64,000 bases of DNA from an uncultured bacterium (GTDB taxonomy: Bacteria > Patescibacteriota > Minisyncoccia > Phycocordibacterales > CAIZLB01), in contig CAIZVZ010000012.1 in NCBI GenBank assembly GCA_903936565.1, forward strand, positions 3,778-67,777, written 5' to 3'. A model generated the notes under the pieces. The model ran no database searches, was not told where the DNA came from, and saw nothing but the letters and a program-made list of their open reading frames with translations. A program made the position numbers and the translations under genes. Below, one piece after another: positions 13,520-43,772 of the stretch (position 1 is the first letter of the stretch; each line of letters starts with the position of its first letter).

Positions 13520-13549
13520 AAGGCCGGCCCGCGATTGCGGTCCGGCCTT
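13520..13549. terminator. GC-rich hairpin between convergent genes
   Basis: aaggccgg-ccgc-gatt-gcgg-ccggcctt, a 12-bp stem; the A-run on its left gives a U-run for the minus-strand transcript, so it acts mainly as the terminator of the 13598-14161 gene. Confidence 0.5.
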
Positions 13550-13597
13550 GCTCGTTGGGCGGAGCGGATTGTTGGTAAACTAAGGAAGCGGGGTATC

Positions 13598-14161
13598 CTA
13601 ACTTCCTGCAACAAATCTTGCTAGTCGAACCCACCACGGCGGCTGGGTTTGTCTGGTGGTTTCCACGACAATGAAGGAGAGACCGACCCCTGAGGATTCG
13701 TTCTTGTCCATATCTTCCTTAGTTACCCTGATGACGGTATATCCATCGCAGACATCAAAGTGGATAGGTTCAAACTGTTGCCCCTCGTCGCAGAGATTCA
13801 GGTAAATCTCAAGTCGCAACAATTGGCTGATAAGCTTGAACCATTCTTCTTTGGATAAATAAGTTTGGACAAGCCGCTTGATGATCCCCAAAAGGGCAGC
13901 ACAATTGCAGTTACCGGAGCGGCAGGTTGCGATTCGCTGCTCCTCTCTTTTGTTGATCTCGGCTCCCAATCGATTGAGTTCCGTGAGCAAATTATGCCTG
14001 TAGTGATACAAGCGGACAAGTCGATCGAGGTGAGAGAAGGATCCGATGATATCATCTTTGCCCTCCTTAGCTTGTCGGAGATCAAGTGATTTGGGGTCAC
14101 TGATGTCCACCTTAGCCAGTATTGCTTCAAGGCTTTTTGTGTCTGTGCTTTCGTGATTCAT
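13598..14161 (-). CDS. hypothetical protein (GC-enriched cassette gene)
   Basis: 187-aa ORF with clearly higher GC than its neighbours; no recognisable motifs apart from a CRSGNCNC cysteine cluster. Confidence 0.4.
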   Translation of the reverse strand: MNHESTDTKSLEAILAKVDISDPKSLDLRQAKEGKDDIIGSFSHLDRLVRLYHYRHNLLTELNRLGAEINKREEQRIATCRSGNCNCAALLGIIKRLVQTYLSKEEWFKLISQLLRLEIYLNLCDEGQQFEPIHFDVCDGYTVIRVTKEDMDKNESSGVGLSFIVVETTRQTQPPWWVRLARFVAGS

Positions 14162-14332
14162 GATTTCAATCTGTGGGGTGTAGTTTTACTCAATAGGTTA
14201 TTCGGTATTCACAAAAAAACAAATCAGCCCTATGCTGACCGCTTGAATTGTAAGGAACCGACTTGAATGGAATATAACATTGTATTTAGTATATGTCAAC
14301 GGTATGGTATTTGTGAAAAAAACAATGGTAAC

Positions 14333-14347
14333 TGCTATAATCTAACT
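14333..14347 (+). promoter_or_regulatory. extended -10 promoter (TGcTATAAT) with a 6-nt leader to the ATG (leaderless-type)
   Basis: tgctataatctaactATG; the same 15-mer tataatctaactatg recurs at 24439-24453. Confidence 0.45.
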
Positions 14348-17300
14348 ATGAATAAAGTAAATCCTGCACAAAGTAAGTTTGAGGAGAGATATGGTAAGCT
14401 AAATAAGCAGCAGAAGAAGGCTGTGGATACCATTGATGGACCACTATTGGTTGTTGCTGGTCCCGGCTCGGGAAAGACAGAAATACTTTCACTTCGCGTG
14501 GCAAAGATTCTAAAAGAGACCCAGGTCTTGCCATCCAATATTTTGTGTATGACATTCACGGACGCCGCTTCATCAAATATGAGAGATCGTTTGTCACGCT
14601 TGATTGGTAACGAAGCGTACAGAGTTTCTATTCACACTTTCCACAGCTTCTGTATAAACATCATTCAAAAATATCCAGAATATTTTTATAAAGGTATACA
14701 ATTTACCCCCGCCGATTCTTTGACCCAAGTTAGGATTCTTGAAGATATTTTCTATGGATTGCCTCAAGGTAATACATTCCGCGATAGCTATCATGAAGAA
14801 AAAGGTTTTTCATATCTATCTGATGCCAAAAAGCGAATAGAGCATCTCAAAAAATCTGGAATCACACCAGATGAGTTCAGAAAGATTATTGCACACAACA
14901 AGCGGTCGGCGCGTCGAGCAGAAAAAATAGTTGTTCCTGCATTCGAAGGTCGTCTCGGAAAGGATGCCTTGGAGCTTGTTAAAAACACAGTGGCGGAATT
15001 GTTCAAGGCAGCAGAGCTGGAGAATAAAGAGGATCCATTCCCACAGGAGAATTCAATATTTTTACCAATTCTTGCATCCTATGCAAACTCACTTCAGGGT
15101 ACACATGCTGATGCAATAGCGGATGATGGAAAAAATACCCAAATCTCAACTTGGAAAACAAAGTATTTAAAGATGCGAGACGATGGTACAAAAACTCTCA
15201 AGGAAATATTAGATGAAGATAAAATGGATGTATTGGCTGATGTTTATGATTTATATCGAAAGAAGATGACGAGCAAAGCATTCTTTGACTTCGACGATAT
15301 GATTCTTGATGCTATTGAAGCGATAGAGAAGCATCCTCGTTTGAAATTCGAATTACAAGAGCAATATCAATATGTTTTAGTGGATGAGTTTCAGGATACA
15401 AATAACGCCCAGATGAAGTTGGTTAATTTGATTTTGAATGCACCAGTGAACGAGGGGCGTCCAAACGTGATGGTTGTGGGTGATGACGATCAGGCAGTCT
15501 ATAAATTCCAGGGTGCTGAGCTTTCAAATATTCTAAATTTTAGAAGAATGTTCGTCGATGTTGAAATTGTCACAATGACTGATAATTATAGATCAACTCA
15601 AGATGTGCTAGATATCGCAACTCACATAATCAGAAAGGGAAGTGGGCGACTTGAAACACTCTATAAAATTGAAAAAAGTTTGAAATCATTAGGTGAGGGA
15701 TTGACTAATGGGGAGATTGTAAATAAAAAATTTAGAACTTCATTAGAAGAATATCATTTTATATCTAGAAAAATAAAGGAATTAATTGACGGTGGAACGA
15801 ACCCAGAAGATATTGCCGTGATTGCAAGAAAGCATGATGGTTTGGAAAGTTTGGTGCCTTACTTGAAGGGGGTACATGTTCCGATTAGATACAAACGCGA
15901 GCAAGATGTTTTCCTAGAGCCCCATATAATGCAGATAATTATTATTTCGAGATTCATCGCAAGTCTATCGCGCAAGGATGCAATTGAAGCTGATAATTAT
16001 TTGCCACAGATTTTGAGTTTCCCATTTTGGCAATTAGGTCGGCAAACTGTTTGGGAGATTTCCAAGGAGGCATACGAGACAAGAAAGACTTGGCTTGAAG
16101 TTATGTTGGAATACAAGGGCGATTCTATAAAGGCACCTCATAAGGTTTCTGACATAGCACATTTTCTAATTGATATTGCAAATAAGTCATTACATGAACC
16201 GCTTGAAAAAGTTTTGGATATTATAATTGGAGCGCACGTTGTGTTGGTGGCGGAGAGCGAGGATGACTTTGAGGATGATGGGGTTGGTGCCGCAGGACCC
16301 GCAGTACCCGCAGGAGCCAAGGCACAAATTGCCTCACCATTCAAGGACTATTATTTTAATAAAGAAAAGTTTGAGCACTCAAGAACGGAATATCTCTCAT
16401 TTCTTTCGAGTCTTCGGGTGTTTATTCGTGCCCTTCGTGATTATGTCGGCGAGCGTGCATTGAACGATGATACTATCTTGAGTGGAGATTTGAATGATGT
16501 AAGTTATCATTATCTTACAATAGAAGACCTAATAAAATTTGTAGATCTTAGACAAAAGAATCATTTGCCGTTAAATGATGAGAGTCCATTTGCAAGTGGA
16601 GAAAAAGCAGTGAACCTTCTTTCATCACATGGTGCGAAGGGGCTGGAGTTTGATACCGTGTTTGTTCTTTCTTGCCAGGATAATATTTGGGCAGGCAGAG
16701 GGGTAAATAATAAAATATCATTTCCAATCAACCTACCAATTCAGCCAGCTGGAGACGATGAGACAGATCAAATGAGATTGTTTTATGTTGCATTAACTCG
16801 TGCAAAGCGACATCTATATTTAACATCGTATAAAATTGCAGAGACTGGAAAGGAGTCCTCAATCCTTCGATTCATGCTTCCATCTAATGATTTTGATTAT
16901 AAAAAGTCACCAGCAGTTTTGGAAAAATTATATAATCCAGAAGATCAATCAATTGATGATAATGGTCCAGAGACGCATGAGCTTCTGACAGCATCATGGT
17001 TGTTGTATAACACACCTCCATTTTTTGGTGAAGAAATTGAGCTATTAAAGATTCCTCTTAAGGATTACAAATTATCGGTTACTCACCTTAATAACTTCTT
17101 GGATGTTAAAAGGGGTGGTCCTCAGACATTTTTGGAACAGAACCTTCTCCGATTTCCTCAGGCGAAAACTTTGGTCAGCTCATACGGGTCAACAATTCAC
17201 AAGGCAATAGAGCGTTTAATTGTTTCTAAAAAGATAGGTAAGGATGTTGGAGAATTAGATGAGGAAGGGAATATTGTTTCTTTTAGTGACTCTTTGCCTG

Positions 17301-18016: not shown

Positions 18017-18094
18017 TTTAGTTAAAAACAAAACCCAAAACTTTTTAAATTTTGGATTTTATTTGCCCGAACATTTATTTAATTGTAGCAAATG

Positions 18095-18781: not shown

Positions 18782-18945
18782 GTATTTAAATTATTTATTA
18801 ATTATTATGCATATAATAATAACAAAAAAATGGAGGTCAAGCCCCGTTTTTTGCAAAAAAAGTGTGGTCTAATTTTAAGTAACATAGAAGCCCCGCTTGA
18901 AAACGGTGGCGAGGTCACGCGCGGTGGGCGGGGCTTCTCTGGTTT

Positions 18946-19473
18946 TCAGGCGGGGCTTGGGGCGAGATTTGGCTTATAATCCTCCGGTGGAGTTCCCCAC
19001 CAGCGAATATGTCTTCCTCGATCGAGCTTGCTCTTGTCGGTGGGTAAGATCCGTTTAATGAGGTCTTGTAGTGTGTTGTCTCGCACTGCACCATCTAACG
19101 TCATTGTAAACAGATTCGGATCGCCCAATCGCCCTAGGCAGGTAGCATCGTGTCCGTTCGTGGTGAGTACGACAAACGGGGTCGTTTCGCGACCCATAAT
19201 TTCGCGACCCCGTGCATATACTGCTTGTCCAACATGCTTATCGCCTTGAGCAAATTCATGTGCAAATCGACTTTTACCACAGGGTAGGTAGTCGCTTATG
19301 ATGACGATTACATAGCCAGTATCCTTTTTCTCCAAGTGTTGGAGGACTTGGTGTGCGTCGGCACAGATTACCCATTTGGGTGATTGGATAACGCTACCTA
19401 GTGAAGCGAGCGTGCTTGCAAAATACTGTTGGTCTAGTTTTGGGTGTGTTGCTATTAATACTGTTACTTTCAC
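18946..19473 (-). CDS. receiver-like (CheY-fold) hypothetical protein lacking the canonical acid pocket; GC-enriched
   Basis: block-wise similarity to the 19796-20287 product (VLIATHP / ILLAYDK; VIVIISD / DIIIIDG; VVLTTNGH / VMVTTNHS); elevated GC. Confidence 0.4.
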   Translation of the reverse strand: MKVTVLIATHPKLDQQYFASTLASLGSVIQSPKWVICADAHQVLQHLEKKDTGYVIVIISDYLPCGKSRFAHEFAQGDKHVGQAVYARGREIMGRETTPFVVLTTNGHDATCLGRLGDPNLFTMTLDGAVRDNTLQDLIKRILPTDKSKLDRGRHIRWWGTPPEDYKPNLAPSPA

Positions 19474-19795
19474 TGCATCGTTCTTTCTGTGTTAGGGGTT
19501 GTTGATTAGAATTCTTCCGGACTGTCAATAAGTTTCTAGTCCAAGAAAAAGATTACCACGATTTAAAAGACTCTACAACAGTAATGTTTATGGTTAGGTG
19601 ATGTAAAAAGAAGGGTTTATATATAAAATCAGAAACAAAGAGACCCCGATCCAAACGGGGGAAGCGAGGCTCCTTTGGTTTGGGTTTCGGGGTTTAATAG
19701 GTTGTGTTTGTTGGGCGTGGTGAATCTTATTGTTTTGATATTCCTGAGGCGGGGGTTATTCGAGAATCGCCTGGTAAGACGCCATGTTCGGGTTG

Positions 19796-20287
19796 TTAAA
19801 CTCTATTTGCTGGAAAGAAGTGTCTGACGGCTGCAATGATGCTGTCATCCATTGACGCTTCAGCTTTAGTTACCGCCAAATGATGGTCGGAACTTAACGC
19901 AGCTACGGATAAACGAACAAGTTCGCTGTGGTTTGTTGTAACCATGACTACGGGAACTTCTTTCGTTTGATCTTTCCTGCGAACCTGTTTGTAGATGTAC
20001 GCCCCGGTATCTAGGGATTTTCTGGCTCTTGGTGCATATTTGGGGATCCCCTTGTTATCGAGACGTCCATCGATGATGATGATGTCAAAAACAAAACGTC
20101 TCGAATTTACATACCTTAAAACTTTACCCGCGTCTCCACAGGTCGTGACACTAAAGTCAGGCTCTGCTTCGAGTCTGGCTTGGGTGTTTTCTGAATAGAA
20201 TCTGCCAGGCTCTTTGTCGTAAGCAAGCAGTATGTTAATTTTTCTGGGCATTTTCTGACTATTTCTGGTTTGGGAACTGGACCACAT
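19796..20287 (-). CDS. stand-alone response-regulator receiver domain protein; GC-enriched
   Basis: LLAYD...FDIIIIDG...VVMVTTN resembles the CheY D/D/T pattern; elevated GC. Confidence 0.5.
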   Translation of the reverse strand: MWSSSQTRNSQKMPRKINILLAYDKEPGRFYSENTQARLEAEPDFSVTTCGDAGKVLRYVNSRRFVFDIIIIDGRLDNKGIPKYAPRARKSLDTGAYIYKQVRRKDQTKEVPVVMVTTNHSELVRLSVAALSSDHHLAVTKAEASMDDSIIAAVRHFFPANRV

Positions 20288-20307
20288 TAGGAATAATTCC
20301 TAGTCCT

Positions 20308-21657
20308 CTAAAAGCCTATCATGCTTTTGGATGGGGTACAATTGGGTGCTGTACAGGTTGGGTGTATGTAGGGTTCGTGGGTGTGCGGGAGCTGTGGAGT
20401 GTGGTGTTTAATAGGAAACTCCACCTCAAACGCCGTTCCTTTGCCTAATCTACTTTTTACGCTAATCGTACCGTTGAAATATTTTTCTACAATGTGCTTT
20501 GTTGATGATAATCCAATACCGCATCCATGTTCTTCTTTGGTCGTGTAGAATGGTTCAAATATATTTGGAATGATTTCTTCTCTGATTCCGCTTCCATTGT
20601 CTATTGCTTTAATATTTATTTTTTCGCTTTTAATCTTTGTTTTTATCAAAACTATTTTGTTCTTTAGTGGGGTGGGGGATTGTGCTTTGCTTAATCCGAT
20701 ATACAGGTCGGCGGGTGAGACTTGAAGTTGGTAAACATTAGAATTTATTTGTCTGTCTGCATGAGCGTCAATTCCATTTGATAACAGATTCATAATAATA
20801 TGAGAAAAAAGAACCTGCGGGCCATATAATTCCTGTAACTTATTTTTATTTGATAATATTAATTTTACATCACCCTTGATAGCTTTTGATTTTAAAAGTT
20901 CCATTGCTGAAAGTATTTCTTGTTCAATATAGAAGGTGGTACTTAAATCGTTTATCTTAATGTGCTTTCTTGATTGTTGAATGAGATTCTCAATTTTTTT
21001 AATTGAGGGGATTAGCTTCGTCATCGAATCTTTAACTTCTTCAACTTTATGTATTTGTAAATTAAGGGCAATGTTGGTTAAGGGGGTCATTATGTCGTGA
21101 AAAAGTCCAGAAGATATTCTTCCAAATTCGACTAGTCTGTACATGGAGTTTATCTTGTCTATTTGCAGTCTGTTGATTTCATCTGTTCTTTCTTTGACTT
21201 TAATCTCGAGATTATCTTTTTCGAATTGAAGCTTGGATTCGGATTCTCGATATTTTATAAGGGTTTTCTCGAGTTGATTGTTAGATAGCCAAGAAAATAG
21301 GGCTGCGAAGATAAGGAGAGAGGAGTATTCTAGGATGTCGAGAGTATTGAAGTTCGCAGTTTTCCAGTCATAATTTGGTACTATGATGTGATTAGAGTTT
21401 AGGTATTGAAAAAGAAAAAGGTGAAGAATGAGGATGGCGGCGGAGATCAATCCTGCTTTGGAATTTATGAGAATACCTGAAATTATGACTACCACAAATG
21501 ACGTTATAAGTATTGTTGGTAAATCAGCACCCCAATTGATTGAACCATAAAGTATACATCCGTATATTAGAAGTAATATCATCAGGCTGCTGGGTAGTAG
21601 TTTGCCCTGCTTAGTGCTTTTGTTAATATCTTTTTTGTAAATGAATGGTTTGTGCAT
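20308..21657 (-). CDS. sensor histidine kinase
   Basis: N-terminal TM helices; H-box FHDIMTPL; N, G1 and G2 boxes (NLLSNGIDAH, IDNGSGI, GCGIGLS). Confidence 0.85.
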   Translation of the reverse strand: MHKPFIYKKDINKSTKQGKLLPSSLMILLLIYGCILYGSINWGADLPTILITSFVVVIISGILINSKAGLISAAILILHLFLFQYLNSNHIIVPNYDWKTANFNTLDILEYSSLLIFAALFSWLSNNQLEKTLIKYRESESKLQFEKDNLEIKVKERTDEINRLQIDKINSMYRLVEFGRISSGLFHDIMTPLTNIALNLQIHKVEEVKDSMTKLIPSIKKIENLIQQSRKHIKINDLSTTFYIEQEILSAMELLKSKAIKGDVKLILSNKNKLQELYGPQVLFSHIIMNLLSNGIDAHADRQINSNVYQLQVSPADLYIGLSKAQSPTPLKNKIVLIKTKIKSEKINIKAIDNGSGIREEIIPNIFEPFYTTKEEHGCGIGLSSTKHIVEKYFNGTISVKSRLGKGTAFEVEFPIKHHTPQLPHTHEPYIHPTCTAPNCTPSKSMIGF

Positions 21658-21752
21658 TGTTTTTGAATAATGTGTGTGTCTGTCAATTAATTATAGATAA
21701 TTTAGTCATAATTACCAACGTAGTATTTTTAGTAATAAGGCTCAAATCTTTG

Positions 21753-21840: not shown

Positions 21841-21961
21841 CGAAAAAAAACATACCACTAAGTGCATAATGCTTCTATAAATATTTTCTAAATAATTTCA
21901 GAAATTTTTATTTAGGTCAAAATATTAAATAGCCAATATGGTATATATAGTATTTATTATA

Positions 21962-22965: not shown

Positions 22966-23376
22966 ATGAAGAACAAACTATTGGAAATGGCTATCTTAGC
23001 CAGACATCTCAAGGCAATGTTGGGTGGACATACGATGTCCAATGAGGCTCATGCCACCCAGATGGCGGCTGTAGTCGGCCGACTGTTTGAACAACATGTT
23101 CCTGCGGCCATCAAGATGCACTTCGCCGATCCTGAATCTGCAAACAACGGGTCCTACGATTCGTTTGACAGGACGACGGCTGGTGTTCGTACGCGTGCTT
23201 ATGAGTATCATCATGGTTCCCAGTTATACTTCAACCTGCGTGTGGAAACCGTAGAGGGGGCGATCATGGTCCTCTGTGACGATTCCTTCACGGCAGAAGA
23301 AATTGCTGAGGCTTCACGTTTGCCTCTTGACGCATTGCTTGAGCAGAGTGTCGCTACCACTGCTGGACCAGCCTGA
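22966..23376 (+). CDS. hypothetical protein (GC-enriched cassette gene)
   Basis: 136-aa ORF at about 50% GC, against about 35% in its flanks; no recognisable motifs. Confidence 0.35.
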   Translation: MKNKLLEMAILARHLKAMLGGHTMSNEAHATQMAAVVGRLFEQHVPAAIKMHFADPESANNGSYDSFDRTTAGVRTRAYEYHHGSQLYFNLRVETVEGAIMVLCDDSFTAEEIAEASRLPLDALLEQSVATTAGPA

Positions 23377-23380
23377 AATC

Positions 23381-23430
23381 AACCCGCCCTATGGAGCCCG
23401 CCGCGAGGCACCTCCAAACGGCGGGTTTTC
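23381..23430 (+). terminator. GC-rich hairpin terminator after the GC-enriched ORF
   Basis: aacccgcc...ggcgggtt stem enclosing an inner GC stem, followed by tttcctattaaatatttttt. Confidence 0.4.
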
Positions 23431-25868: not shown

Positions 25869-26489
25869 TCAGGTCTCTACTGGCTCAACAATACTGAAAA
25901 GGTGAAGGCTTGCTCGCGCAGCTTTTAGGGTTTCTTCTGCTGCTTTCAAGTCATCAGTTGCGTAGATTACATCCGCACTGACTTTACCTTGGCGATTCAC
26001 CAGTAATTTAATGAGTGCTTCATAAGCGTCAATTTGCCGACGCATTTCCTCCAGGTTACTCAAGACTGAGGTAGTAGTCGTTTTCCGCCTCCTTCTTGTC
26101 GTTCGCCAAGTGCACTCGATTGGGTCAATCTTCTCCCAAGCCTCATTAAAGTCTTGGAAAATCTTCCAATGCTTAACGCACTCTTTGTTTGCCTTGCGAA
26201 AGAATGTGACGCCAAGTAGGGTGCCAAGTGAAAAGAAGGACTCAACGGTGACATAACACCGAATCGGCATCGATTGCTTATAGGTGAAGACCGTTACGGC
26301 GGTAGTTATCATTAGTCCCAACAAGGCAAGACTGGCTAGCCATTTAAAGATTTTGGCGGACCTTTCTGCGGATGCTAGGAGCTTTGCTTCTTTCTCAAGG
26401 TTTACGCCAACGTTTCTTTCGTAGGCCGCCACTAGTCCAATGAACATCCGGTTAAGGATTTGTTCGTATCTGTTTCTTTTTGGTTTCAA
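25869..26489 (-). CDS. hypothetical membrane protein
   Basis: two predicted TM helices; Arg/Thr-rich linker. Confidence 0.4.
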   Translation of the reverse strand: MKPKRNRYEQILNRMFIGLVAAYERNVGVNLEKEAKLLASAERSAKIFKWLASLALLGLMITTAVTVFTYKQSMPIRCYVTVESFFSLGTLLGVTFFRKANKECVKHWKIFQDFNEAWEKIDPIECTWRTTRRRRKTTTTSVLSNLEEMRRQIDAYEALIKLLVNRQGKVSADVIYATDDLKAAEETLKAARASLHLFSIVEPVET

Positions 26490-28065: not shown

Positions 28066-28920
28066 ATGAGCAATTTAGACAATCAAATGAAGCATACACA
28101 AAGTGATGTTTTTGTGGCATATAAAAATGAGGGGGAGACACCGCTCGAGTGTCTTAATCGTCTGAAGGATGAGGGTTTTTTGCCATTTAATGATAAATTC
28201 ACTTATGCTGGACGCCTTGACCCCATGGCTGAAGGGTTGATGATATATTTGAGGGGTGAGGCCATAAAGTCTAAACATGAGTTTTTGGGGCTGAGTAAGG
28301 AGTATGAAGTGGAGATCTTACTAGGGGTGAGTACAGATACAGGGGACATTTTGGGTATGGTCAGTGGGACAGTCCTGGGGGACGTGGTGTTTGATTTGAA
28401 GAATGTTCAGAATATTTGTGAATCTTTTGTGGGGGATATGGAAGTGCCGTACCCATGGTTTTCTTCGAAGACTTTGCAGGGTAAGCCGCTATATGAATGG
28501 GCAAGGGAGTTTGCAGAGGAGGATGATGAAGTAAGTGTCAAGGGCGAAGAAGGCCAAGAAATATTTTTAAGACCAATGACTAAATTATCAATTCAGAAAA
28601 TTGAATTTCTTGATTTGAGTTTGATGCCTGTAGAAGTTTTGCATAATAATATTGTAAATAGAATTGCAAAAGTTAAGGGAGATTTTAGACAAGATAAAAT
28701 TTTAAATGAGTGGAATGAAAAAGTTTTTGCAGATAAAATTAAGAAAACAAAAAGCCTGCATAAAAATGAAGAAATAGAATATCCTATTATAAAAATAAAA
28801 GTTAAATGTGCAAGCGGTTCATATATGAGAACTCTTGCAGAATTAATTGGTGATAAATTAAAGGTGCCAGCGCTAGCTTATTCGATTAAGAGATTGGGTG
28901 TGGGGGATTATAGTTTGTAA
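28066..28920 (+). CDS. truB: tRNA pseudouridine synthase, TruB family
   Basis: HAGRLDPMAEGLM catalytic-Asp motif and the N-terminal KP.G.TS-like pattern; start moved from 27994 to 28066. Confidence 0.6.
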   Translation: MSNLDNQMKHTQSDVFVAYKNEGETPLECLNRLKDEGFLPFNDKFTYAGRLDPMAEGLMIYLRGEAIKSKHEFLGLSKEYEVEILLGVSTDTGDILGMVSGTVLGDVVFDLKNVQNICESFVGDMEVPYPWFSSKTLQGKPLYEWAREFAEEDDEVSVKGEEGQEIFLRPMTKLSIQKIEFLDLSLMPVEVLHNNIVNRIAKVKGDFRQDKILNEWNEKVFADKIKKTKSLHKNEEIEYPIIKIKVKCASGSYMRTLAELIGDKLKVPALAYSIKRLGVGDYSL

Positions 28921-29039
28921 TGATACGCTAGTTTGACCTTGGGGCTCGGGCGTGTTGTATAAAGTTGTTGTGGATAAACTAATATTCATAATATTGCTAT
29001 TTTTTGTGGTTTTGCTAGCATTATATCTGGGAGAGTTCT

Positions 29040-29400
29040 TGACCAACAAATGATTTGGATAGACTCTTTCTTTTGCTAACCCTAAACCACTGAAAAGAGA
29101 ATGAAACACAGACTCGGCACTATGTGCCCTCGAACAGCGACGGATGATTCCGCCACCAAAACCGGTACCGCCTCCAGCAAGACGCGTGGCATCGCCGGCC
29201 TCAACATCGACATCATCGTTCCCTGAACGCGGCCGCATTCACCATGAAAGCTCATCTTGATCAGTTATAGGGGAGTAAGAAAGACGTGCTCCCCAGTCGC
29301 TACTCGCATAAAGACCTGTCTTTATTTTCAACAAGGAAGGCACAGCTCGCTGTTCCATCCTACCGGCCCCCCTGCTCACTTGCTAGTTAAGTCCATGTGG
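29040..29400. other. GC-enriched ~360-nt segment without a convincing ORF (candidate structured ncRNA or decayed GC cassette)
   Basis: sharp local GC rise; only short low-quality ORFs on both strands; ends in an intrinsic terminator. Confidence 0.2.
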
Positions 29401-29435
29401 CTTATAGAGAGGGGGGTTTCCTCTTGCCTATTTTT
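29401..29435 (+). terminator. intrinsic terminator (gagagg-gggtttc-cctctt, then TTTTTTT)
   Basis: 6-bp stem followed by ctatttttttaat. Confidence 0.5.
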
Positions 29436-29510
29436 TTAATACACAAAATATTCCGAAATTCTTTAAGTAATTTTTATAGAGGCATTATGTCCATTTGATA
29501 GTATGTCCCC

Positions 29511-30569
29511 ATGGCACAAGAGCGAGAGGGAAATATTATTGAACCACTATTATATATAAATTCAAAAAACTCAGTCGATCAAGCTGACGCTCTTATTATT
29601 GATGCCATACAATTGAAAGCTTCGGACATTCACATTCAGCCATCAAAAGACAGAACAGAAATTAGGTTCAGAATTAAGGGCCACATGAGTAATGGTCGCT
29701 TCATAAGCTACGGCCAATATATTGAGCTGGTTGGTCGATACAAAATTTTGGCCCAAATGCGAATTGATATTAAAGACATACCGCAAGATGGTAGCTTTGG
29801 TCATGAGGGTTATAGAGTACGCGTTGCTACAATCCCCGGAGTTGATGGGGAGTGTATGGTTCTTCGTATTCTAGATTCCGCCAGTTTACAAATTAAATAT
29901 TTAACTGAGGCGGGAATGTCGTCGAATATCTTTCATAATTTACTTGAAGGTCTACGGGCATCCCCTGGTCTTGTAATTTTTTCTGGTCCAACGGGGAGTG
30001 GTAAGTCAACGAGTGCATATAGTTTGCTCTCGTCTCTGATTGAAGAAAATAAGCAGATACTAACAATCGAGGATCCAGTTGAGAGGAGGATAGAGGGACT
30101 AAGGCAGGTTCAGATACGTCCACAGTCTGGATTCAATTACGCTCAAGCTCTCAAGGCTTCAATGCGACAAGATCCGGATGTAATTTATGTCGGTGAGGTT
30201 AGAGATTCTGACACAATGAAAAGTGTGATGAATCTTGCTCTAACTGGACACACTGTTATTACCACAATTCATGCAAGAGATATAAGAATGACAATCAGAA
30301 GATGTCGATACCTAGGTGCGGATGCATATGAATTATCAATGGTCACAAGAGCAATATTTAATCAAAGACTTGAGAAGGTTCAAAGCGGAGCTCGGTGGAA
30401 TTTTGAACAAATAGCCATGTTTGAAAGTCTCATAAATAACAAAGGGGGCGACGCGCAGTGTGTGTTTATGGATGATCATTCGGTCGGCTCGGGTAACGCT
30501 CAGTATAAACAGGAATTTACTTATGAATCAATGGAGGAGGATAGGGAAAATAAGGCAAGTAATGTGTAA
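29511..30569 (+). CDS. type II/IV secretion ATPase (PilB/GspE/PilT family)
   Basis: Walker A GPTGSGKST, Asp box, EDPVE and His-box motifs. Confidence 0.8.
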   Translation: MAQEREGNIIEPLLYINSKNSVDQADALIIDAIQLKASDIHIQPSKDRTEIRFRIKGHMSNGRFISYGQYIELVGRYKILAQMRIDIKDIPQDGSFGHEGYRVRVATIPGVDGECMVLRILDSASLQIKYLTEAGMSSNIFHNLLEGLRASPGLVIFSGPTGSGKSTSAYSLLSSLIEENKQILTIEDPVERRIEGLRQVQIRPQSGFNYAQALKASMRQDPDVIYVGEVRDSDTMKSVMNLALTGHTVITTIHARDIRMTIRRCRYLGADAYELSMVTRAIFNQRLEKVQSGARWNFEQIAMFESLINNKGGDAQCVFMDDHSVGSGNAQYKQEFTYESMEEDRENKASNV

Positions 30570-35092: not shown

Positions 35093-35121
35093 TAAATAAG
35101 ATATACTTCCTTTTGGTTACA

Positions 35122-35315: not shown

Positions 35316-35945
35316 ATGATACTTACAAAAAGGGCTTTTAAAGCTGGTGATGCTGATGGAGACGTTGGGGAAATACCAGACTTGAATTTTAACGTGTTTG
35401 AGGGTTCAACTCCTTCAAATCTACTCGCGAGTCTTACTGCACGAGGCGACGTCACCATCATTGGTGATACCCAGGTGTTGGACCGACTGTTGTGGCCGGA
35501 GTACGAATTCCCTGAATTTTCCCACATGGTGTCTGCCTGTTTTGCCAGGGTCGACAATAGTTCACCTTCACTGGCAGATACCGCTAGTTTGTCCTTTTTT
35601 GATAAAATGGACCTGCTAATCGGTGGTCTTAATGTTCAGCTCGGATATGGCGAAAAAGAGTCTCTGTATCTAGCTGGAGACATGGAGGCTGCCACTGTTA
35701 TTTGTTGCTTGGCAAGGAACAAGGATCATGGCTGGGGGCAACTGCCTTCACGTGCACTGATCCGTATCTTTCCAGAGGAGGAGTTTGTTGCTAGCACGGT
35801 TGTAATTTTGACGACCGAGATTCAAAATGATCAATTGGTACTGCGCTTTTTTGAACTCCCCCCTGAGCACGCTGGTTTGCATTATGACGACTGCCGTGTC
35901 TTGCTGACTCGGATGGCTGACGATAGGGATAGTGCACATGAGTGA
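35316..35945 (+). CDS. hypothetical protein (GC-enriched cassette gene)
   Basis: elevated GC; GGAG sits 7 nt before the ATG at 35316; the longer ORF starts at 35277. Confidence 0.35.
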   Translation: MILTKRAFKAGDADGDVGEIPDLNFNVFEGSTPSNLLASLTARGDVTIIGDTQVLDRLLWPEYEFPEFSHMVSACFARVDNSSPSLADTASLSFFDKMDLLIGGLNVQLGYGEKESLYLAGDMEAATVICCLARNKDHGWGQLPSRALIRIFPEEEFVASTVVILTTEIQNDQLVLRFFELPPEHAGLHYDDCRVLLTRMADDRDSAHE

Positions 35946-35978
35946 CTTTCCCTTCAAAAAACTCGCACTGTTTAAGTG

Positions 35979-36003
35979 CCCGGTCCTAACAGGCCGGTTT
36001 TTT
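35979..36003 (+). terminator. GC hairpin plus T6 terminator for the 35316-35945 gene
   Basis: ccgg-t-cct-aac-agg-ccgg, then tttttt. Confidence 0.45.
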
Positions 36004-36012
36004 GTTGCAAGT

Positions 36013-36039
36013 AAAAACCGCATCTTTTCTAATGCGGTT
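36013..36039 (-). terminator. terminator hairpin for gpmI on the minus strand
   Basis: aaccgcat-cttttcta-atgcggtt; the A5 run on the plus side gives a U-run on the minus transcript. Confidence 0.4.
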
Positions 36040-36092
36040 AATTACTTTTATTTTTTCGCTGAAGTGATGATGAAGTGGTGGTGAATTAAAAT

Positions 36093-37733: not shown

Positions 37734-37809
37734 ATATTTGTTTAATTGCGAACTTTTAATTGATAAAAATATTTTTTAAAATTCTACCGCAAGTGAGAGG
37801 AAAAGGGAA

Positions 37810-39201
<1,392 letters not shown>

Positions 39202-39292
39202 TTACCTCTGTTTTAAATTTTCTTATAATTTGTATACGCCCATTGTATCATAACTTTTAATGTAGTATTCTATCGAACAGAAGGGTTGACCT

Positions 39293-40198
39293 ATGTCAAA
39301 TGTCCTTTTCGGTTTTCTCAACCAAATTCAACTAAACCAACAGAATAAAGAACCAAATCACATGAAAAAACTAGAACGTGAAAGCCCGAGAGGGGCTGGG
39401 CAAAACGGCCCTTGCGACATAGTTCTGGATGATGATCTGGGACTTTGGAGCTGTGAACAACAGGTAATCCATGTGGGGTTAAAACCCGATGGGACACCAA
39501 TGGATATGACCATTTTTGGTCTCGATATGACGCTCATGGATACCGCTTATTCACTTTGGGCGGCGTCTCAGCGGATTGTGGAGGTGTACACTGATAACCT
39601 GAGTCGGATACCCGAACTCTCAGAATTTGAACTCGGTGTACCGAGTTTTGATTTCTATGCTTGGGGGGTACCAAAATACGTTCCACTTAGTCAAGCTTGG
39701 GAAACGTTTGCTGAAATTCTTGCGGGAATTGAAGCGGCTAGACCAAGCGGGCTTTTACCAGGTGTCGCAGAGTGGCTTAAAACTCTGGCGTTGCAGTCTC
39801 ATCTAATCATTGTGACCAACAACAAGACTCCAAGCCTCCCTGAGATTATCAGAGTTCAGGCCGGGGTTGATGTTGATCTGGTTGTGGTGGATGATGACGT
39901 TGCACCGGTTCTCGGAGTTTTGAATAATTCGTACCGTGCTCTCCATGAGTATGGGTGTAAGCTGTTCTACTTTGATAACTCGCTAAGGGAAATACAGGCG
40001 GCAGACGCCTGTGGACCTCCACTTTACCCAGTTGCTGTTGCGTGTAATAAAATTCACGCACCAAGTAACGCCGGGCAAAAGGCGGCGTGGAAGAGGTTGG
40101 CAATTCAAAGCGGGGCACGTGGCATTCTGTCTCCTGGTCAAATCTGCGCGGCCATTTCAGGTGGATATGATTTGAACGGTTCGCTTTCTAGCTGGTAG
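39293..40198 (+). CDS. HAD-superfamily-like protein with a substituted nucleophile; GC-enriched
   Basis: IFGLDMTLMDT resembles HAD motif I, but Gly replaces the first Asp; HLIIVTNN matches motif II; FDNSLREIQAADACG matches motif IV. Confidence 0.4.
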   Translation: MSNVLFGFLNQIQLNQQNKEPNHMKKLERESPRGAGQNGPCDIVLDDDLGLWSCEQQVIHVGLKPDGTPMDMTIFGLDMTLMDTAYSLWAASQRIVEVYTDNLSRIPELSEFELGVPSFDFYAWGVPKYVPLSQAWETFAEILAGIEAARPSGLLPGVAEWLKTLALQSHLIIVTNNKTPSLPEIIRVQAGVDVDLVVVDDDVAPVLGVLNNSYRALHEYGCKLFYFDNSLREIQAADACGPPLYPVAVACNKIHAPSNAGQKAAWKRLAIQSGARGILSPGQICAAISGGYDLNGSLSSW

Positions 40199-40240
40199 GG
40201 CTTAGGCCTGATTCCAGCTTTGGTGGCAGTTCAATTCATT

Positions 40241-40273
40241 GGGGCGCGGCGAGAAATCGCCGCGCCCCTTTTG
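40241..40273 (+). terminator. strong intrinsic terminator (12-bp GC stem plus TTTT)
   Basis: ggggcgcggcga-gaaa-tcgccgcgcccc, then ttttg; lies inside the 5' end of the tracked ORF 40239-41207, which argues that ORF starts later. Confidence 0.55.
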
Positions 40274-40346
40274 CATTGCACTTTTTTGTAAAAGTAGTAT
40301 TCTTTTTTCCAGAAAGGGGGCTTCAAACCAAGGCCCACAGATTTTG

Positions 40347-41207
40347 ATGAATAAAAGATTGAAAGCACAATTTGCTTCACTTATTCACAGAAAAGATGTT
40401 GGCCTCAACATTAGTCTGTGTCGAAATGTGGGGCTGTCCATTCTGGAGGCACAAGAAGTGCAGCCACGCAAAACCCCAGGCGGTTCACCGTTTCCGCTTG
40501 TGGCATGTTCCTTTGACGAACTGTTGGCTCCTACTGCTTCCAACTGCTACAAGGCGCTGGTGCGGTATGCAGCCGATATTGATGATGATTATGACTATGA
40601 TTTGCCGTCGCGATCTGATTTTAGAAATATGAATATCTACGAGAACCGTTCTATTCTACACGGTCTAAACCTTTTAAGGAGAACCCCATACAGCAATGTC
40701 TGGTATTCATATCTTGAATTGCTCCGTGATGTGGAGAATGAGACTCCAACTAGGCTGTATCCATGGGTTGCTGAAACCTTACGGAGAATCATGGAACATT
40801 TCCATCTGGTCATAGTGACTTCAAATCGTACTCATGATGTCGCTCGTATGGTCAGAAACCAAACGGGGATTACGGAACATTTTGACGTTGTGAAAGTACC
40901 AAGAGCCAACAAGGGTTTGGTGCTTGCCACTTTGGCGGGCTATCACAAGACTCATCACGGTGACGGTGTCTGGATTCCCTTCGACTTTTTTTGCCGTTCC
41001 GAACAGGATGTGAGATCAGCCGAGGAGTGTGGTAGGTACGTAAGTACCTATTGTGTTGCGAACCAACATCACTTGAACGGAAATGGTAGTCTCAAGAACT
41101 ATCTCCGCCGGAATAGTGCAACCCACATCACCGCCGATGAAATTCTCTCTACCGTCTATGGCTATCGCCTCCACAGCTTGGGGTATGGACAAGACAAATG
41201 TTCCTAG
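40347..41207 (+). CDS. HAD-like paralog of the 39293 product, more degenerate; GC-enriched
   Basis: aligns with the upstream gene (L.P.VAE.L...HL.IVT.N.T, F..S...A..CG, LNG.GSL); start moved to MNKRLKAQ because the 40239 start overlaps the terminator hairpin. Confidence 0.35.
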   Translation: MNKRLKAQFASLIHRKDVGLNISLCRNVGLSILEAQEVQPRKTPGGSPFPLVACSFDELLAPTASNCYKALVRYAADIDDDYDYDLPSRSDFRNMNIYENRSILHGLNLLRRTPYSNVWYSYLELLRDVENETPTRLYPWVAETLRRIMEHFHLVIVTSNRTHDVARMVRNQTGITEHFDVVKVPRANKGLVLATLAGYHKTHHGDGVWIPFDFFCRSEQDVRSAEECGRYVSTYCVANQHHLNGNGSLKNYLRRNSATHITADEILSTVYGYRLHSLGYGQDKCS

Positions 41208-41224
41208 CTGCTCCAAGGTCTGTC

Positions 41225-41261
41225 AAAGGGTGCGGTGGGTTCCAACCCTGCCGCGCCCTTT
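41225..41261 (+). terminator. GC-rich hairpin after the second HAD-like gene, with no U-run
   Basis: aaagggtgcgg...ccgcgcccttt outer stem with an inner gggtt/aaccc stem. Confidence 0.3.
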
Positions 41262-41376
41262 CAAATACCTACAAAATTTAAATAATAAAATAACAACTGT
41301 GTATAAAGTGCATAATTAAATTGCTATTAATATTTGCAGTAATATAATTAGTATGGATTAACCCCCATACATAAAT

Positions 41377-41778
41377 ATGAAATACAGACTGATAGATACA
41401 CAAAGGGTAATCGTTCGTTGCACGGCAGAAGAAGGTATTGTGGCACTCTCGTATTCCGCAAGGGATCTTGTGTCCTACAATGATGAGCGTCCTGAATGGA
41501 GGGACGTTAGCATAACTAGGGATGAATTTGTGGCAATACTTCAGAATTGTCCCTATGCACATAACATGGTCCCGTCCACAGTTTTGTGGGATTGGGTGCA
41601 GAATAAAACCGCACCTGTTTTCCTTCAAACCGGGGATTGGTTCATATCAACTCTCCTGGAGGATCCCGCCACTTCAATGTGGTGCCTTCATGGGAAATTA
41701 TACATATCCAGCGTTGGCCCACTGCCAGGTCACGTTGAAATAGGTAAGAGATTCGAGTTTGTTCTCGCCTATGCCTAA
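41377..41778 (+). CDS. hypothetical protein (moderately GC-enriched)
   Basis: 133-aa ORF at about 46% GC, followed by the GC hairpin at 41803-41832. Confidence 0.35.
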   Translation: MKYRLIDTQRVIVRCTAEEGIVALSYSARDLVSYNDERPEWRDVSITRDEFVAILQNCPYAHNMVPSTVLWDWVQNKTAPVFLQTGDWFISTLLEDPATSMWCLHGKLYISSVGPLPGHVEIGKRFEFVLAYA

Positions 41779-41802
41779 GTTCTAGGCTGATATTTTCGGA
41801 CC

Positions 41803-41832
41803 GGGCGCGGCGGGGATTCTCCCTCCGCGCCC
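41803..41832 (+). terminator. GC-rich hairpin (gggcgcgg...ccgcgccc)
   Basis: 8-bp GC stem 25 nt after the stop of the 41377-41778 ORF. Confidence 0.3.
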
Positions 41833-41894
41833 TATCGTTTATCAAAAAATTTGATACAATGACAAGACCAAAAGAAACATGAAATTTGTGAAAT

Positions 41895-43055
41895 ATGAAC
41901 CCACTAAATCTATTTAAATATTTTCTAAAAGTATCCAAAAAAACAAAAGCTGTTGTTGAACCACAGCTTGGATTTTGGAATGATTTAAATAATAAATGTA
42001 GATCAATTAAACATAATGGTGGGGAAGTCGAGGGTAGAAGAAATATTGGACGACCCATCTGTGTTCTTGCTCCAATGGCGGATGTAACGGATTGCGCATT
42101 CAGATATGCAATAAATAAATATGGCAAGCCAGATGTATTGTGGACAGAATTCGTTTCGGCTGACGGACTCGTTCGTGCAAATCCAGAAGGGATGAAAAAA
42201 CTTTTGGCTGATTTGAAATTCGAAAAAGAAGAAAAGCTAATCGTGGCACAACTGTTTGGTTCAAATCCACAATATATGGAAGAAGCCTGCAAAATTGTTG
42301 CAGATCTAGGGTACGATGGAATCGATTTGAATATGGGTTGTCCTGATAAGAGTATTGAAAGACAAAAAGCTGGGGCCTCGATGATGAAGAATCCGAAGCT
42401 TGCTAAGGAGATTATTTTTGCAGCTAAACGTGGTGCACCAAATATTCCAATAACCGTGAAGACCAGAGTTGGGTACAATAAAGATGAGCTTGACTCGTGG
42501 CTTAGAAATATTCTAGAAGCAAGTCCTGCGGTTGTTACAATTCATGCTCGCACAAGAAAGGAAATGTCGAAGGTTCCAGCTGATTGGAGTTATGTAAAAA
42601 GAGCAGTGGAGATTAGAAATGAATTTCAAAAGGACTTGATTAGTTCTGGTAAACAACACACTTTAATTTTTGGAAATGGAGATGTGACATCTGTTGCCGA
42701 CGCTTACAAAAAAGCGGAAGAATCAAATGCTGATGGTGTGATGATTGGTAGGGGAATATTTGGAAACCCATGGTTGTTCTCAACTTTGCAAAAACCTATC
42801 ACAAGGAATGCAGGCGATGATTTTAATGTTCTACAAAATGAACCTACACTTGAAGAAAAATTAAATGTAATGGTAGAACATACTCAAAGGTTTCAAGATG
42901 AGTTGGGTGGAATAAAAAACTTTGCGGTAATGAAAAAACATTTCAAAGCTTATGTGAATGGTTTTGATGGTGCAAAAGAACTGAGAGCAGAACTAATGGA
43001 GACAAATAACGCGGGGGAGGTGAGGCTGATAACTGAAGGTTTTTTGTCTAAATAA
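41895..43055 (+). CDS. dus: tRNA-dihydrouridine synthase
   Basis: LAPMADVTD, VAQLFGSNP and DGIDLNMGCP motifs of the Dus TIM barrel; ~30-aa N-terminal extension. Confidence 0.85.
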   Translation: MNPLNLFKYFLKVSKKTKAVVEPQLGFWNDLNNKCRSIKHNGGEVEGRRNIGRPICVLAPMADVTDCAFRYAINKYGKPDVLWTEFVSADGLVRANPEGMKKLLADLKFEKEEKLIVAQLFGSNPQYMEEACKIVADLGYDGIDLNMGCPDKSIERQKAGASMMKNPKLAKEIIFAAKRGAPNIPITVKTRVGYNKDELDSWLRNILEASPAVVTIHARTRKEMSKVPADWSYVKRAVEIRNEFQKDLISSGKQHTLIFGNGDVTSVADAYKKAEESNADGVMIGRGIFGNPWLFSTLQKPITRNAGDDFNVLQNEPTLEEKLNVMVEHTQRFQDELGGIKNFAVMKKHFKAYVNGFDGAKELRAELMETNNAGEVRLITEGFLSK

Positions 43056-43251
43056 AGTCCTGCCTGTGCTTCACTAGACTAAATACTATATATGTGTTAT
43101 TATTTTGAACATAAAGTTCTTTGTAATTTGGTTGTGACTTTTAGGTCCTTAAATATAAGGATTCAAAAGTTGCAACCAACAGGTTGGTTGTAGCTCGTGG
43201 TTTCGGCCGCGATTGAGATAACAAAGCTAAACTAGAAAGACAAGTCACTCG

Positions 43252-43686
43252 ATGAGGACAATGTTAAAGAAATTGATGACGGCAGGTGTTTTGCCTGGAA
43301 CAAAAAAACGCAACAAAAAAGTTAGTGGGGCAATATCGGTTTACATTCCTAATCTCTCCGCCCTTCTCGGGGACGTTGAAGATGCTGGGTACTTTGAAAG
43401 GGTAGATCTCCTTGTAGAGACTTTGAAGGAGGCGGATGCTAAAAACCAGTGGCGGGATCCAGATCCTGGGTCATTCCATTTTATATCTGCTGCCTTATCC
43501 AAGGAGGATAATCGTATCATCCTCTACTTCCGCCCGGATGACCCACTTGTGACGAGTGGTCAAACGCACGCCTACCAGAAGTATGTCGAAAGAGTCTGCT
43601 CTGTGATGGATAAGATGCTTTCAAGAAGTATCAATGGTGTTTTCAGGATGACCCTTACACCATCAGTCACTATCGGGCCTGTCTAA
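43252..43686 (+). CDS. hypothetical protein (GC-enriched cassette gene)
   Basis: 144-aa ORF with elevated GC, followed by a strong terminator. Confidence 0.35.
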   Translation: MRTMLKKLMTAGVLPGTKKRNKKVSGAISVYIPNLSALLGDVEDAGYFERVDLLVETLKEADAKNQWRDPDPGSFHFISAALSKEDNRIILYFRPDDPLVTSGQTHAYQKYVERVCSVMDKMLSRSINGVFRMTLTPSVTIGPV

Positions 43687-43719
43687 TAGGCGTAAGCACT
43701 TAGTCAACATACACAAACA

Positions 43720-43772
43720 CCGCCACCGTAACCCGACGAAACCGTCGGCCTCACGGCTGGCGGTTTCTTTTT
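43720..43772 (+). terminator. intrinsic terminator (compound GC hairpin plus T-run)
   Basis: ccgccaccg...ccgacg-aaac-cgtcgg...cggctggcgg, then tttctttttg. Confidence 0.55.

Follow-up and report, generated by a model that had tools for sequence, protein, structure and literature searches.

The 64-kb stretch of contig CAIZVZ010000012.1 analyzed here (the window; overall GC 0.375) carries 11 open reading frames (ORFs) that are markedly richer in GC than the genes around them, and we refer to such a GC-rich ORF unit as a cassette. Our analysis indicates that these GC-rich patches are probably a resident class of small, genus-restricted, fast-evolving coding genes, and not recent GC-rich imports. 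Under this explanation most cassettes would be separate transcription units, each consisting of a putative promoter, a short leader, one ORF and an intrinsic terminator with a strong G/C stem, with the strong terminators insulating the adjacent housekeeping genes. They would occupy fixed intergenic slots in which they duplicate in tandem, decay and get lost, and sister species, at 80-97% identity in their core proteins, would thus carry barely recognizable, multiplied or absent versions of them. Below, the motif-less cassette families are labeled fam1, fam3, fam4, fam5 and fam6, and L-numbers designate the contigs of sister and other Paceibacteria that were compared with the window.

The per-gene composition of the 11 ORFs, which are located between 13.6 and 45.5 kb of the window, spans a GC of 0.43-0.51 and a GC content at third codon positions (GC3) of 0.44-0.57 (mean 0.48, sd 0.04), against a non-overlapping GC3 of 0.23-0.41 (mean 0.30, sd 0.05) in the 41 other window ORFs, a separation that is descriptive only, since the two classes were drawn on GC3 itself. 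Independent criteria, namely the lack of an above-threshold Pfam match and low conservation, select the same 11 genes. The GC deviation reported by the initial annotation of this DNA is thus real, and the ORF intervals it listed hold on per-gene composition. Its list nevertheless included a segment, 29040-29440, which is GC-rich but holds no ORF, and missed the ORF at 25869-26447, while that at 45061-45483 lay just outside the range it covered. The third positions of the cassettes are near-even in base usage (A.23, C.25, G.23, T.30), those of the remaining genes being A.34, C.12, G.17 and T.37. Cys, Trp, Arg, Ala and His are overrepresented in their proteins, whereas Lys, Ile, Asn and Glu are underrepresented. 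The increase in GC starts 40-80 nt within the ORF and spans the stop codon and the terminator hairpin, after which GC drops to about 0.30. When read on the + strand, the third positions have more T than A in all 11 cassettes and more G than C in 10 of them, irrespective of gene orientation; these skews track the host replication strand, which points to long residence.

Several features bear on the coding status of these ORFs. All 11 are longer than composition-matched shuffles permit (p<=0.0075 each, 2000 shuffles), a test that is supportive and not exact, as the shuffled segments were delimited by the ORFs themselves. GC by codon position follows a coding pattern, GC1>GC3>GC2 or similar. ORF length, taken together with the ratio of nonsynonymous to synonymous substitution rates (dN/dS; see below), indicates that the 11 cassette ORFs are protein-coding genes.

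The source organism is a freshwater member of the Paceibacteria, that is, an ultra-small bacterium of the candidate phyla radiation (CPR). Its Dus protein matched only metagenome-assembled genomes of Patescibacteria/Paceibacteria among species-representative genomes, and the nearest of these, at 87-88% identity, originate from stratified freshwater lakes. Independently assembled contigs of this species agree perfectly (100% identity) across 15-20 kb, and a fourth assembly differs by one single-nucleotide polymorphism (SNP) in 20.6 kb. A chimeric assembly or contamination, which the initial annotation had named as possible sources of the GC-rich patches, is therefore excluded. The same near-identity (0-1 SNP in 15-20 kb) marks a clonal population, and hence makes the within-species SNP spectrum unusable for gauging mutation bias.

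To identify relatives, the six motif-less ORFans were joined end to end and used in an exhaustive HMMER scan of 1.84 billion representative proteins. This recovered 16 matches for the six combined, corresponding to 1-4 clusters per family, and no homologue outside the lineage. Scans of 10 of the 11 cassette proteins gave no above-threshold match in Pfam, no match in PADLOC, and a single weak one in PHROG (E 0.0028). Four cassette families tested against IMG/VR had no relatives there, and an Rfam gathering scan of the window returned only tRNA. We fetched the contigs of eight remote matches, one of which (L169, 1.35 kb) was too short for flanking context. Every traced homologue with flanking genes occupies the same syntenic slot in a sister Paceibacteria genome: fam1 adjoins the helicase gene, fam3 follows DsbA, fam4 lies between the Flg_new-repeat gene and iPGM, the HAD-like genes and fam5 lie between enolase and Dus, and fam6 lies between Dus and DnaX. 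Identical slots are occupied in L164, L165/166, L167, L170/171, L174, L175 and L176. The cassette homologues share 24-69% identity and have a GC3 of 0.38-0.56 (all but one at least 0.43), whereas the flanking core proteins in the sister genomes are 78-98% identical and are encoded at a GC3 of 0.19-0.39.

Despite this fixed placement, the content of the slots turns over among collinear genomes through presence or absence, change in copy number and tandem duplication of the whole unit. Thus, the window shares fam4 with L165, whereas L004 and L167 lack it; fam5 and the second HAD-like copy occur in the window and L167 but are missing from L004, L005 and L165; and neither L005 nor L165 has fam6. 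Every sister genome also has GC-rich ORFs of its own without a counterpart in the window. The earlier proposal of fast-evolving, lineage-specific accessory cassettes is therefore borne out by homologues confined to sister genomes, by their low identity relative to the core proteins, and by gain, loss and duplication. Likewise, the cassettes do lie on both strands between cellular core genes, as had been described.

Core genes compared between the window and its relatives have a dS of 0.5-2 and a dN of 0.01-0.24. The cassettes show a dN of 0.19-1.12 and, where dS could be estimated, a dN/dS of 0.14-0.43, with dS within or above the core range and several pairs saturated. Because cassette dS is comparable to or above core dS, the fast protein change can be explained without invoking a higher local mutation rate. 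These comparisons suggest that the pace of cassette evolution is about 40-100% of the neutral rate, under either weak constraint or diversifying selection. The slot flanks are 82-95% identical between genomes, while the interiors are at random level and unalignable. Given that even the synonymous sites of core genes agree at only about 55% between the window and L165, unalignable interiors match near-neutral divergence and are by themselves no proof of cassette replacement.

The best downstream hairpin has a folding energy of -24.3 kcal/mol for the GC-rich genes and -12.3 kcal/mol for the others (Mann-Whitney p=4e-4), although two of the strongest values in the latter set are the same hairpins, common to a convergent cassette. 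The stems are 8-14 bp long, the loops are mostly of 4 nt, and the hairpins lie 5-60 nt past the stop codon; a clear T-run follows at 13520, 23381, 29407, 35980, 40241 and 43738, whereas 18888, 41803 and 45525 have a weak T-tract or none. Terminators are seen for about 10 of the 11 cassettes, and those of the AT-rich core genes in the window have A/T-richer stems. The hairpin sequences are mutually unrelated beyond their G/C-richness, and a search for repeats over 13-46 kb found no repeat or inverted-repeat family common to cassette boundaries. In the Dus-DnaX slot, the window, L004 and L005 share a conserved hairpin and 5' leader, while the ORF body has diverged at a neutral-like level; L004 has a paired change that preserves the stem, and L005, which has no ORF in this slot, retains the hairpin directly after Dus. 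Since L005 keeps the hairpin without an ORF, this hairpin is part of a conserved regulatory backbone insulating DnaX and not the end of a mobile cassette. Taken together, the sequence features identify the cassette hairpins as ordinary intrinsic terminators by prediction, and not as recombination sites. All ten hairpins listed in the initial annotation exist, seven of them at -25 to -30 kcal/mol, with two of modest strength (29401-29435 and 35979-36003) and one weak (19645-19660). The accompanying idea that each cassette is closed by a hairpin of its own is accurate for nearly all of them only in the sense of ordinary terminators, one of which persists without an ORF; the hairpin downstream of 19796 is the weak one. 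The strongest hairpin of the window, a perfect 20-bp stem of -33.9 kcal/mol at ~60975-61020, downstream of 60242-60964, is not tied to any GC-rich gene.

Table 1. GC-rich cassettes of the window and the hairpins and promoter-like sites associated with them
Feature	Position	Strand	Remarks
Terminator of fam1	13520-13549	-	-25.2 kcal/mol; 13-bp G/C stem, AATC loop, T-run; common to convergent sigma-70 gene
fam1	13598-14161	-	187-aa ORFan; GC 0.48, GC3 0.54
Promoter-like site of fam1	14299-14271	-	11/12 consensus matches
Terminator of 18946-19473	18888-18936	-	-28.1 kcal/mol; T-tract weak/absent
Receiver-like paralog B	18946-19473	-	175 aa; GC 0.49
Weak hairpin	19644-19660	-	5 bp, -8.9 kcal/mol; ~135 nt downstream of 19796
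Receiver-like paralog A	19796-20287	-	163 aa; GC 0.45
Singleton ORFan	22966-23376	+	136 aa; GC 0.51, GC3 0.52
Terminator of 22966	23381-23430	+	-26.9 kcal/mol; T-run; common to convergent trypsin-like protease gene
fam3	25869-26447	-	192 aa; 1-2 membrane segments, coiled-coil-like tail; GC 0.46
GC-rich segment	29040-29400		GC 0.51; between TruB and pilus ATPase gene
Terminator-like hairpin	29401-29435 (core 29407-29425)	+	-11.6 kcal/mol; T-run; closes the ORF-less GC-rich segment
fam4	35316-35945	+	209 aa; GC 0.48
Terminator of fam4	35979-36003 (core 35980-35997)	+	-10.3 kcal/mol; T-run
Promoter-like site of HAD-like a	39201-39229	+	consensus match
HAD-like a	39293-40198	+	301 aa; GC 0.48
Terminator of HAD-like a	40241-40273 (core 40241-40268)	+	12 bp, 11 G/C pairs, -30.1 kcal/mol; T-run
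HAD-like b	40347-41207	+	286 aa; tandem paralog; GC 0.46
Terminator of HAD-like b	41225-41261	+	-29.8 kcal/mol
Promoter-like site of fam5	41321-41348	+	consensus match
fam5	41377-41778	+	133 aa; GC 0.46
Hairpin behind fam5	41803-41832	+	-26.7 kcal/mol; T-tract weak
fam6	43252-43686	+	144 aa; GC 0.46
Terminator between fam6 and DnaX promoter	43719-43767 (initially listed as 43720-43772; T-run hairpin at 43738)	+	conserved in L004 and ORF-less L005
Outlying cassette	45061-45483	+	140 aa; 4 membrane segments; GC3 0.57
Hairpin behind 45061-45483	45525-45554	+	13-bp G/C stem, -31.4 kcal/mol; no T-tract

The persistence of a GC3 of about 0.48 in every sister lineage after synonymous turnover, with synonymous sites saturated or nearly so, implies that the composition of the cassettes would have to be actively kept apart from that of the core. 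The cause that we prefer, and which carries somewhat less than half of the weight given to the main explanation, is that core genes would be held A/T-ending by codon selection, from which the weakly expressed and weakly constrained cassettes would be exempt, leaving them close to a nearly unbiased neutral equilibrium. The main alternative cause is GC-biased gene conversion (gBGC) at recombination-prone slots, or else selection on the transcript. A broader comparison covered 60 loci of other Paceibacteria anchored on iPGM, for which the iPGM identity is at most 63% among the matches listed. Within the AT-rich loci, a GC3 exceeding the locus median by 0.12 or more is seen in 22% of small ORFans as against 1% of conserved genes, whereas in GC-rich loci the ORFans fall below the locus median. 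A published survey likewise found that ORFans of GC3-poor genomes show equal or higher GC3 (PMC4706650). In loci of more distant Paceibacteria (L041, L007 and L017) we also noted small ORFs of high GC (GC3 0.5-0.7) scattered through AT-rich core genes and frequently accompanied by strong hairpins; these are unrelated in sequence to the cassettes of the window.

A more far-reaching proposition is that two gene classes at distinct stable compositions (core GC3 ~0.3, cassette ~0.48) persist through speciation in unchanged chromosomal slots, with the AT-richness of the core being selected under near-unbiased mutation or with gBGC acting at single-gene slots; we regard this as doubtful at present. 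If true, near-unbiased mutation in this CPR lineage would contradict the general rule of AT-biased mutation. The cassettes and core genes also offer a clean natural experiment, in which two stable compositions occur on one chromosome and one replication strand at similar synonymous rates. With denser sampling of this lake genus, the contributions of mutation bias, codon selection and biased gene conversion in uncultivated ultra-small bacteria might be told apart. Horizontal transfer is commonly called from atypical GC, which would mislead here, where an apparent signature of host-to-symbiont transfer would resolve into something ordinary, namely genus-specific, nearly neutral genes in fixed slots of a streamlined genome.

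Several observations weigh against the explanation of the cassettes as resident genes diverging in place. The material examined comprised one 64-kb window and fragments of about 10 sister genomes, and the singletons at 22966 and 45061 are without any homologue. The cassette promoters are consensus matches only: such matches lie upstream of 13598, 22966, 25869, 39293, 41377 and 43252, and their regional count is near chance expectation. Some rates also fit poorly, in that the HAD-like copies of the window and L165 differ by a dN of 0.72 where core dS is 0.5-0.9, and in that fam5 has a dS of 0.96 between the window and L167, below the core dS of 1.3-2.1; both suggest paralog sorting or exchange between relatives. 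Some fast-evolving genes of the window stay AT-rich, such as those for the Flg_new-repeat protein (GC3 0.24, dN/dS 0.16) and a pilin-like protein (GC3 0.30), and rate alone is therefore no predictor of GC3. Either of two candidate forces, codon selection on the core or a local GC-raising force, could underlie the ~48% GC3. Finally, bacterial mutation is generally AT-biased (PMC12315717), so a neutral equilibrium near 50% would be surprising.

Exchange of this kind is central to a rival explanation, in which the slots would be recombination hot spots. Divergent alleles, paralogs or whole cassettes would be replaced among close relatives through homologous recombination between the conserved flanks (leader and terminator), with frequent gBGC raising the GC content of ORF and terminator. 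The conserved flanks around interiors of random-level similarity are what it predicts, as are the fam5 dS below core dS and a HAD-like dN above what orthology allows. It would also accommodate the distribution of fam5 and HAD-like b, which the window shares with the more distant L167 and not with the closer L004, L005 and L165, and the extension of the GC rise beyond the codons into the terminator. Moreover, DNA exchange between these lineages is evident from a serine recombinase, the window and L167 copies of which are 97.7% identical. However, plain neutral divergence predicts unalignable interiors just as well, given the ~55% identity of core synonymous sites, and the clonal population (1 SNP in 20.6 kb) leaves no measurable breakpoints or polymorphism. 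The operation of gBGC in bacteria is itself debated. We consequently view replacement coupled to gBGC as rather unlikely. The initial annotation suggested that the cassettes may have been acquired independently, possibly with a host or another higher-GC organism as the donor; taken as recent and unameliorated imports, this fares considerably worse. The atypical composition, the single-gene units with terminators of their own and the absence from some close relatives would all suit it. Against these stand the lack of donor-side homologues among the 1.84e9 representatives (six ORFans) and in IMG/VR (four families), and the fact that the traced homologues occupy syntenic positions in sister species and match the cassettes in GC-richness even at a core dS of 0.5-2. 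A rough two-state decay estimate would leave about 20% of an initial excess since the split of the window and L167 lineages, too little for a GC3 of 0.44-0.54. In addition, all cassettes fall in one narrow GC3 band with near-equal bases and show no spread of donor signatures, the skew of the replication strand is already imprinted on them, no integrase, repeats or tRNA accompany them, and the one true mobile island is AT-rich. Donor import is thus largely refuted for the families with homologues in sister genomes, though not for the singletons 22966 and 45061, and overall we consider it very unlikely.

Two further explanations concern the nature of the sequences themselves. The cassettes might be de novo or very young genes, arisen from non-coding or out-of-frame GC-rich sequence, where the AT-rich stop codons are rarer. 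Their restriction to the genus level, the near-equal third-position bases, the excess of Cys, Trp, Arg and His, which random sequence would also show on translation, the simple ferredoxin-like fold of one of them with designed proteins among its matches, and the slot holding a GC-rich segment without an ORF are all in keeping with such an origin. Yet the receiver-like and HAD-like cassettes, which belong to ancient superfamilies, show the same composition, the families persist across species with dN/dS <1, and nothing accounts for the GC-rich non-coding DNA from which they would have sprung in an AT-rich genome; we therefore consider it highly improbable that the class arose in this way. Structured RNAs stand out as GC-rich in AT-rich genomes, and the ORF-less segment at 29040-29400 could prompt the view that the patches are structured non-coding RNAs, or else artefacts of assembly or contamination, instead of genes. 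For the 11 ORFs this is refuted by their beyond-chance length, dN/dS <1 and GC1>GC3>GC2-like coding pattern, and there are no Rfam matches and the independent assemblies agree, which leaves this last alternative with scarcely any credibility. Weighing these alternatives, resident genes evolving fast in fixed slots remain the explanation that we favor.

The cassettes resemble certain previously described classes of genes. According to PMC12315717 (which relates the findings of Daubin & Ochman 2004) and PMC4706650, bacterial ORFans are similarly short and without homologues beyond close relatives, and they too evolve fast under relaxed constraint, have an off-core composition and are gained and lost between related genomes. 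However, classical ORFans are AT-richer than their genome (PMC12315717), whereas the cassettes are about 10 points GC-richer, with a GC3 of ~0.48. They also differ in holding this GC-rich state in syntenic slots across species, the direction of the deviation having a precedent in PMC4706650. Phage morons (PMC3594210) share the architecture of a lone gene placed between two conserved genes and equipped with a promoter and a factor-independent terminator of its own, a composition unlike that of the neighbors, and presence or absence between collinear genomes, the promoters being putative in the case of the cassettes. Unlike morons, the cassettes are flanked by cellular genes (sigma-70, helicase, enolase, iPGM, Dus and DnaX) with no phage or prophage, have no meaningful relatives in PHROG or IMG/VR, and are inherited in place with no visible spread by transfer. 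Integron gene cassettes are comparable in being single, mostly promoter-poor ORFans, each followed by an imperfect inverted repeat. This identity was rejected since the hairpins here have no attC-like consensus and have T-tracts as in terminators; an integron array is further contradicted by the absence of IntI/attI, by a serine recombinase (47636-48964) being the sole recombinase and by the cassettes lying on both strands. Replacement or flexible genomic islets, an established concept in population genomics, occupy conserved chromosomal slots. They share with the cassettes the fixed core-gene slots with poorly related content and conserved flanks, but the cassettes are single genes of 0.4-0.9 kb, as opposed to islands of several genes, that are GC-rich and not AT-rich, and whose divergence fits near-neutral evolution in place. 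A horizontally acquired genomic island was rejected for the cassettes, there being no integrase, tRNA or direct-repeat boundaries and no donor homologues for six ORFans among the 1.84 billion representatives, for the HAD-like and receiver-like queries in the word-indexed search or for four families in IMG/VR. The target of a diversity-generating retroelement was also rejected, given that there are no long direct repeats in 13-46 kb and no within-species variation; no reverse transcriptase domain occurs among the annotated window genes, and the sole link to such elements is a weak C-type-lectin/FGE-like match in the fold search with fam4. The cassettes are accordingly a lineage-specific class of ORFans with a moron-like architecture and no new system, the compositional puzzle alone being of potentially wider interest.

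Fold searches of the cassette proteins gave generic or weak matches only. Nine of the 11 lack a hydrophobic N-terminus or membrane segment, the exceptions being fam3 and 45061, which leaves the earlier suggestion of surface or effector genes unsupported for most of them. There is a weak case that the cassettes encode mostly cytoplasmic small alpha/beta proteins, including divergent phospho-aspartate folds of the receiver-like and HAD-like kinds, and, with similar weakness, that they are plausibly regulatory or conflict-related accessory factors. The expanding receiver-like and HAD-like paralogs and the five motif-less families are candidates for lineage-specific regulation or conflict.

The paralogy proposed at the outset for two pairs of cassettes was recovered. 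The receiver-like proteins 18946 and 19796 are 22% identical (E 3e-5), and both have an Asp at the expected end of beta-3 (IIIIDG and IISDY, as read from the alignment). The Pfam Response_reg model matched 19796 below threshold (E 8.6e-5, 23.1 bits versus a cut-off of 30.2) and did not match 18946, and a word-indexed search of 5.8 billion proteins with 19796 returned only itself. The pair follows a histidine kinase and a response regulator encoded on the same strand; the receiver-like cassette shows no detectable similarity to that adjacent regulator, and its derivation from it was therefore rejected. Given that 19796 starts 20 nt past the stop codon of the kinase and has only a weak hairpin behind it, it is probably operonic, being co-transcribed with the histidine kinase. 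The 3' end of the kinase ORF (20308-20400), just upstream of this cassette, is C-rich and encodes a Pro/His/Thr-rich tail. The GC rise near 19796 already starts within this tail, and the annotated C-terminus of the kinase may therefore represent read-through of former intergenic sequence. Paralog B is 27% identical to a GC-rich ORF of L171, a contig in which positions 28-4162, beside DsbA, hold four GC-rich receiver-like paralogs (152-200 aa), the window having two.

The HAD-like copies are 26% identical to each other (E 2e-18), and match Pfam HAD_2 below threshold (18.6 and 23.1 bits, cut-off 23.8), with a weak match to the HAD phosphatase AlnB in a PDB search (E 0.004) and only a self match for a HAD-like query in the word-indexed search of 5.8 billion proteins. 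The first copy has an FGLDMT motif (D-x-T) and the second has FDELL, motif I of the HAD superfamily being the DxD nucleophile. HAD-like a shares 32-34% identity with the single or first copy in L004, L165 and L167, and HAD-like b shares 50% with L167 8990-9847. A repeat upstream of the two copies (39259-39285 and 40291-40317) implies that the unit was duplicated whole, leader included.

Among the motif-less families, fam1 has homologues P0033 and P0035 at 31-36% identity, which occupy the slot adjoining the UvrD/PDDEXK helicase in L170/L171 with a GC3 of 0.56; its dN is 0.76 and its dN/dS 0.43. The homologues of fam3 are P0028 (43%) and P0036 (28%), the latter in the fam3 slot of L175, where its GC3 of 0.55 compares with 0.19-0.25 in the flanking genes. 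The sole homologue of fam5, P0026, is 69% identical and syntenic in L167 (dN/dS 0.20). The homologues of fam6, at 49, 47 and 30% identity, lie in the syntenic Dus-DnaX slot in L164 and L176, and a fam6 profile matched the positional ORF of L004 weakly (E 0.0025, probability 12%). Its model is a ferredoxin-like beta-alpha-beta-beta-alpha-beta fold (pLDDT 72). L164 has two fam6 copies, which together with the receiver-like set of L171 are tandem expansions inside slots. The singleton 22966 matched only itself among the 1.84 billion representative proteins.

Two short sequences recur near cassettes. The decamer CCCACAGATT occurs at 14168-14177 (-) and 40334-40343 (+), a few nt before the ATG of fam1 and HAD-like b; these two occurrences in the window are not above chance, and what they share is the position before the ATG of two unrelated cassettes. 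The small hairpin AGAGGTTTTACCTCTGT is found at 39195-39211, upstream of HAD-like a, and at 45448-45464, inside the 3' end of the 45061 ORF, with 0 and 1 mismatch, a number judged not above chance (0.17 expected).

The ORF-less segment at 29040-29400 contains no significant ORF (shuffle test p=0.68) and has an ordinary folding energy (z=-1.06), and an E-value scan of 28800-29600 found no Rfam match. Its minus strand has a 168-codon frame broken by one in-frame stop. The equivalent slot in L165 (3660-4060) holds an unalignable segment of GC 0.54 between flanks that are ~85-95% identical, and in L004 it holds only a 110-bp spacer. The segment is either a decayed cassette or an RNA of unrecognized type.

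Genes of the window encode TrmD, two glycosyltransferases, rpoB/rpoC-sized products, DnaG, sigma-70 and the UvrD/PDDEXK helicase, and further genes encode DsbA-like proteins, an OmpR-type two-component system, TruB, type IV pilus proteins, iPGM, enolase, Dus and DnaX. Immediately past a tRNA-Gln (45651-45722) lies an AT-rich mobile island (45768-57343, GC 0.30-0.36), with genes for a 623-aa protein without assigned role, the large serine recombinase mentioned above (on the minus strand), a Type III restriction helicase, N6/N4 and C5 DNA methylases, a NOV_C protein and a ParB-methylase. This one clear mobile island of the window has the features of a genomic island and is AT-rich, unlike the GC-rich cassettes. 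The core proteins of the window and L167 are 70-89% identical, and the near-identity of the serine recombinase in this pair points to its recent exchange between species.

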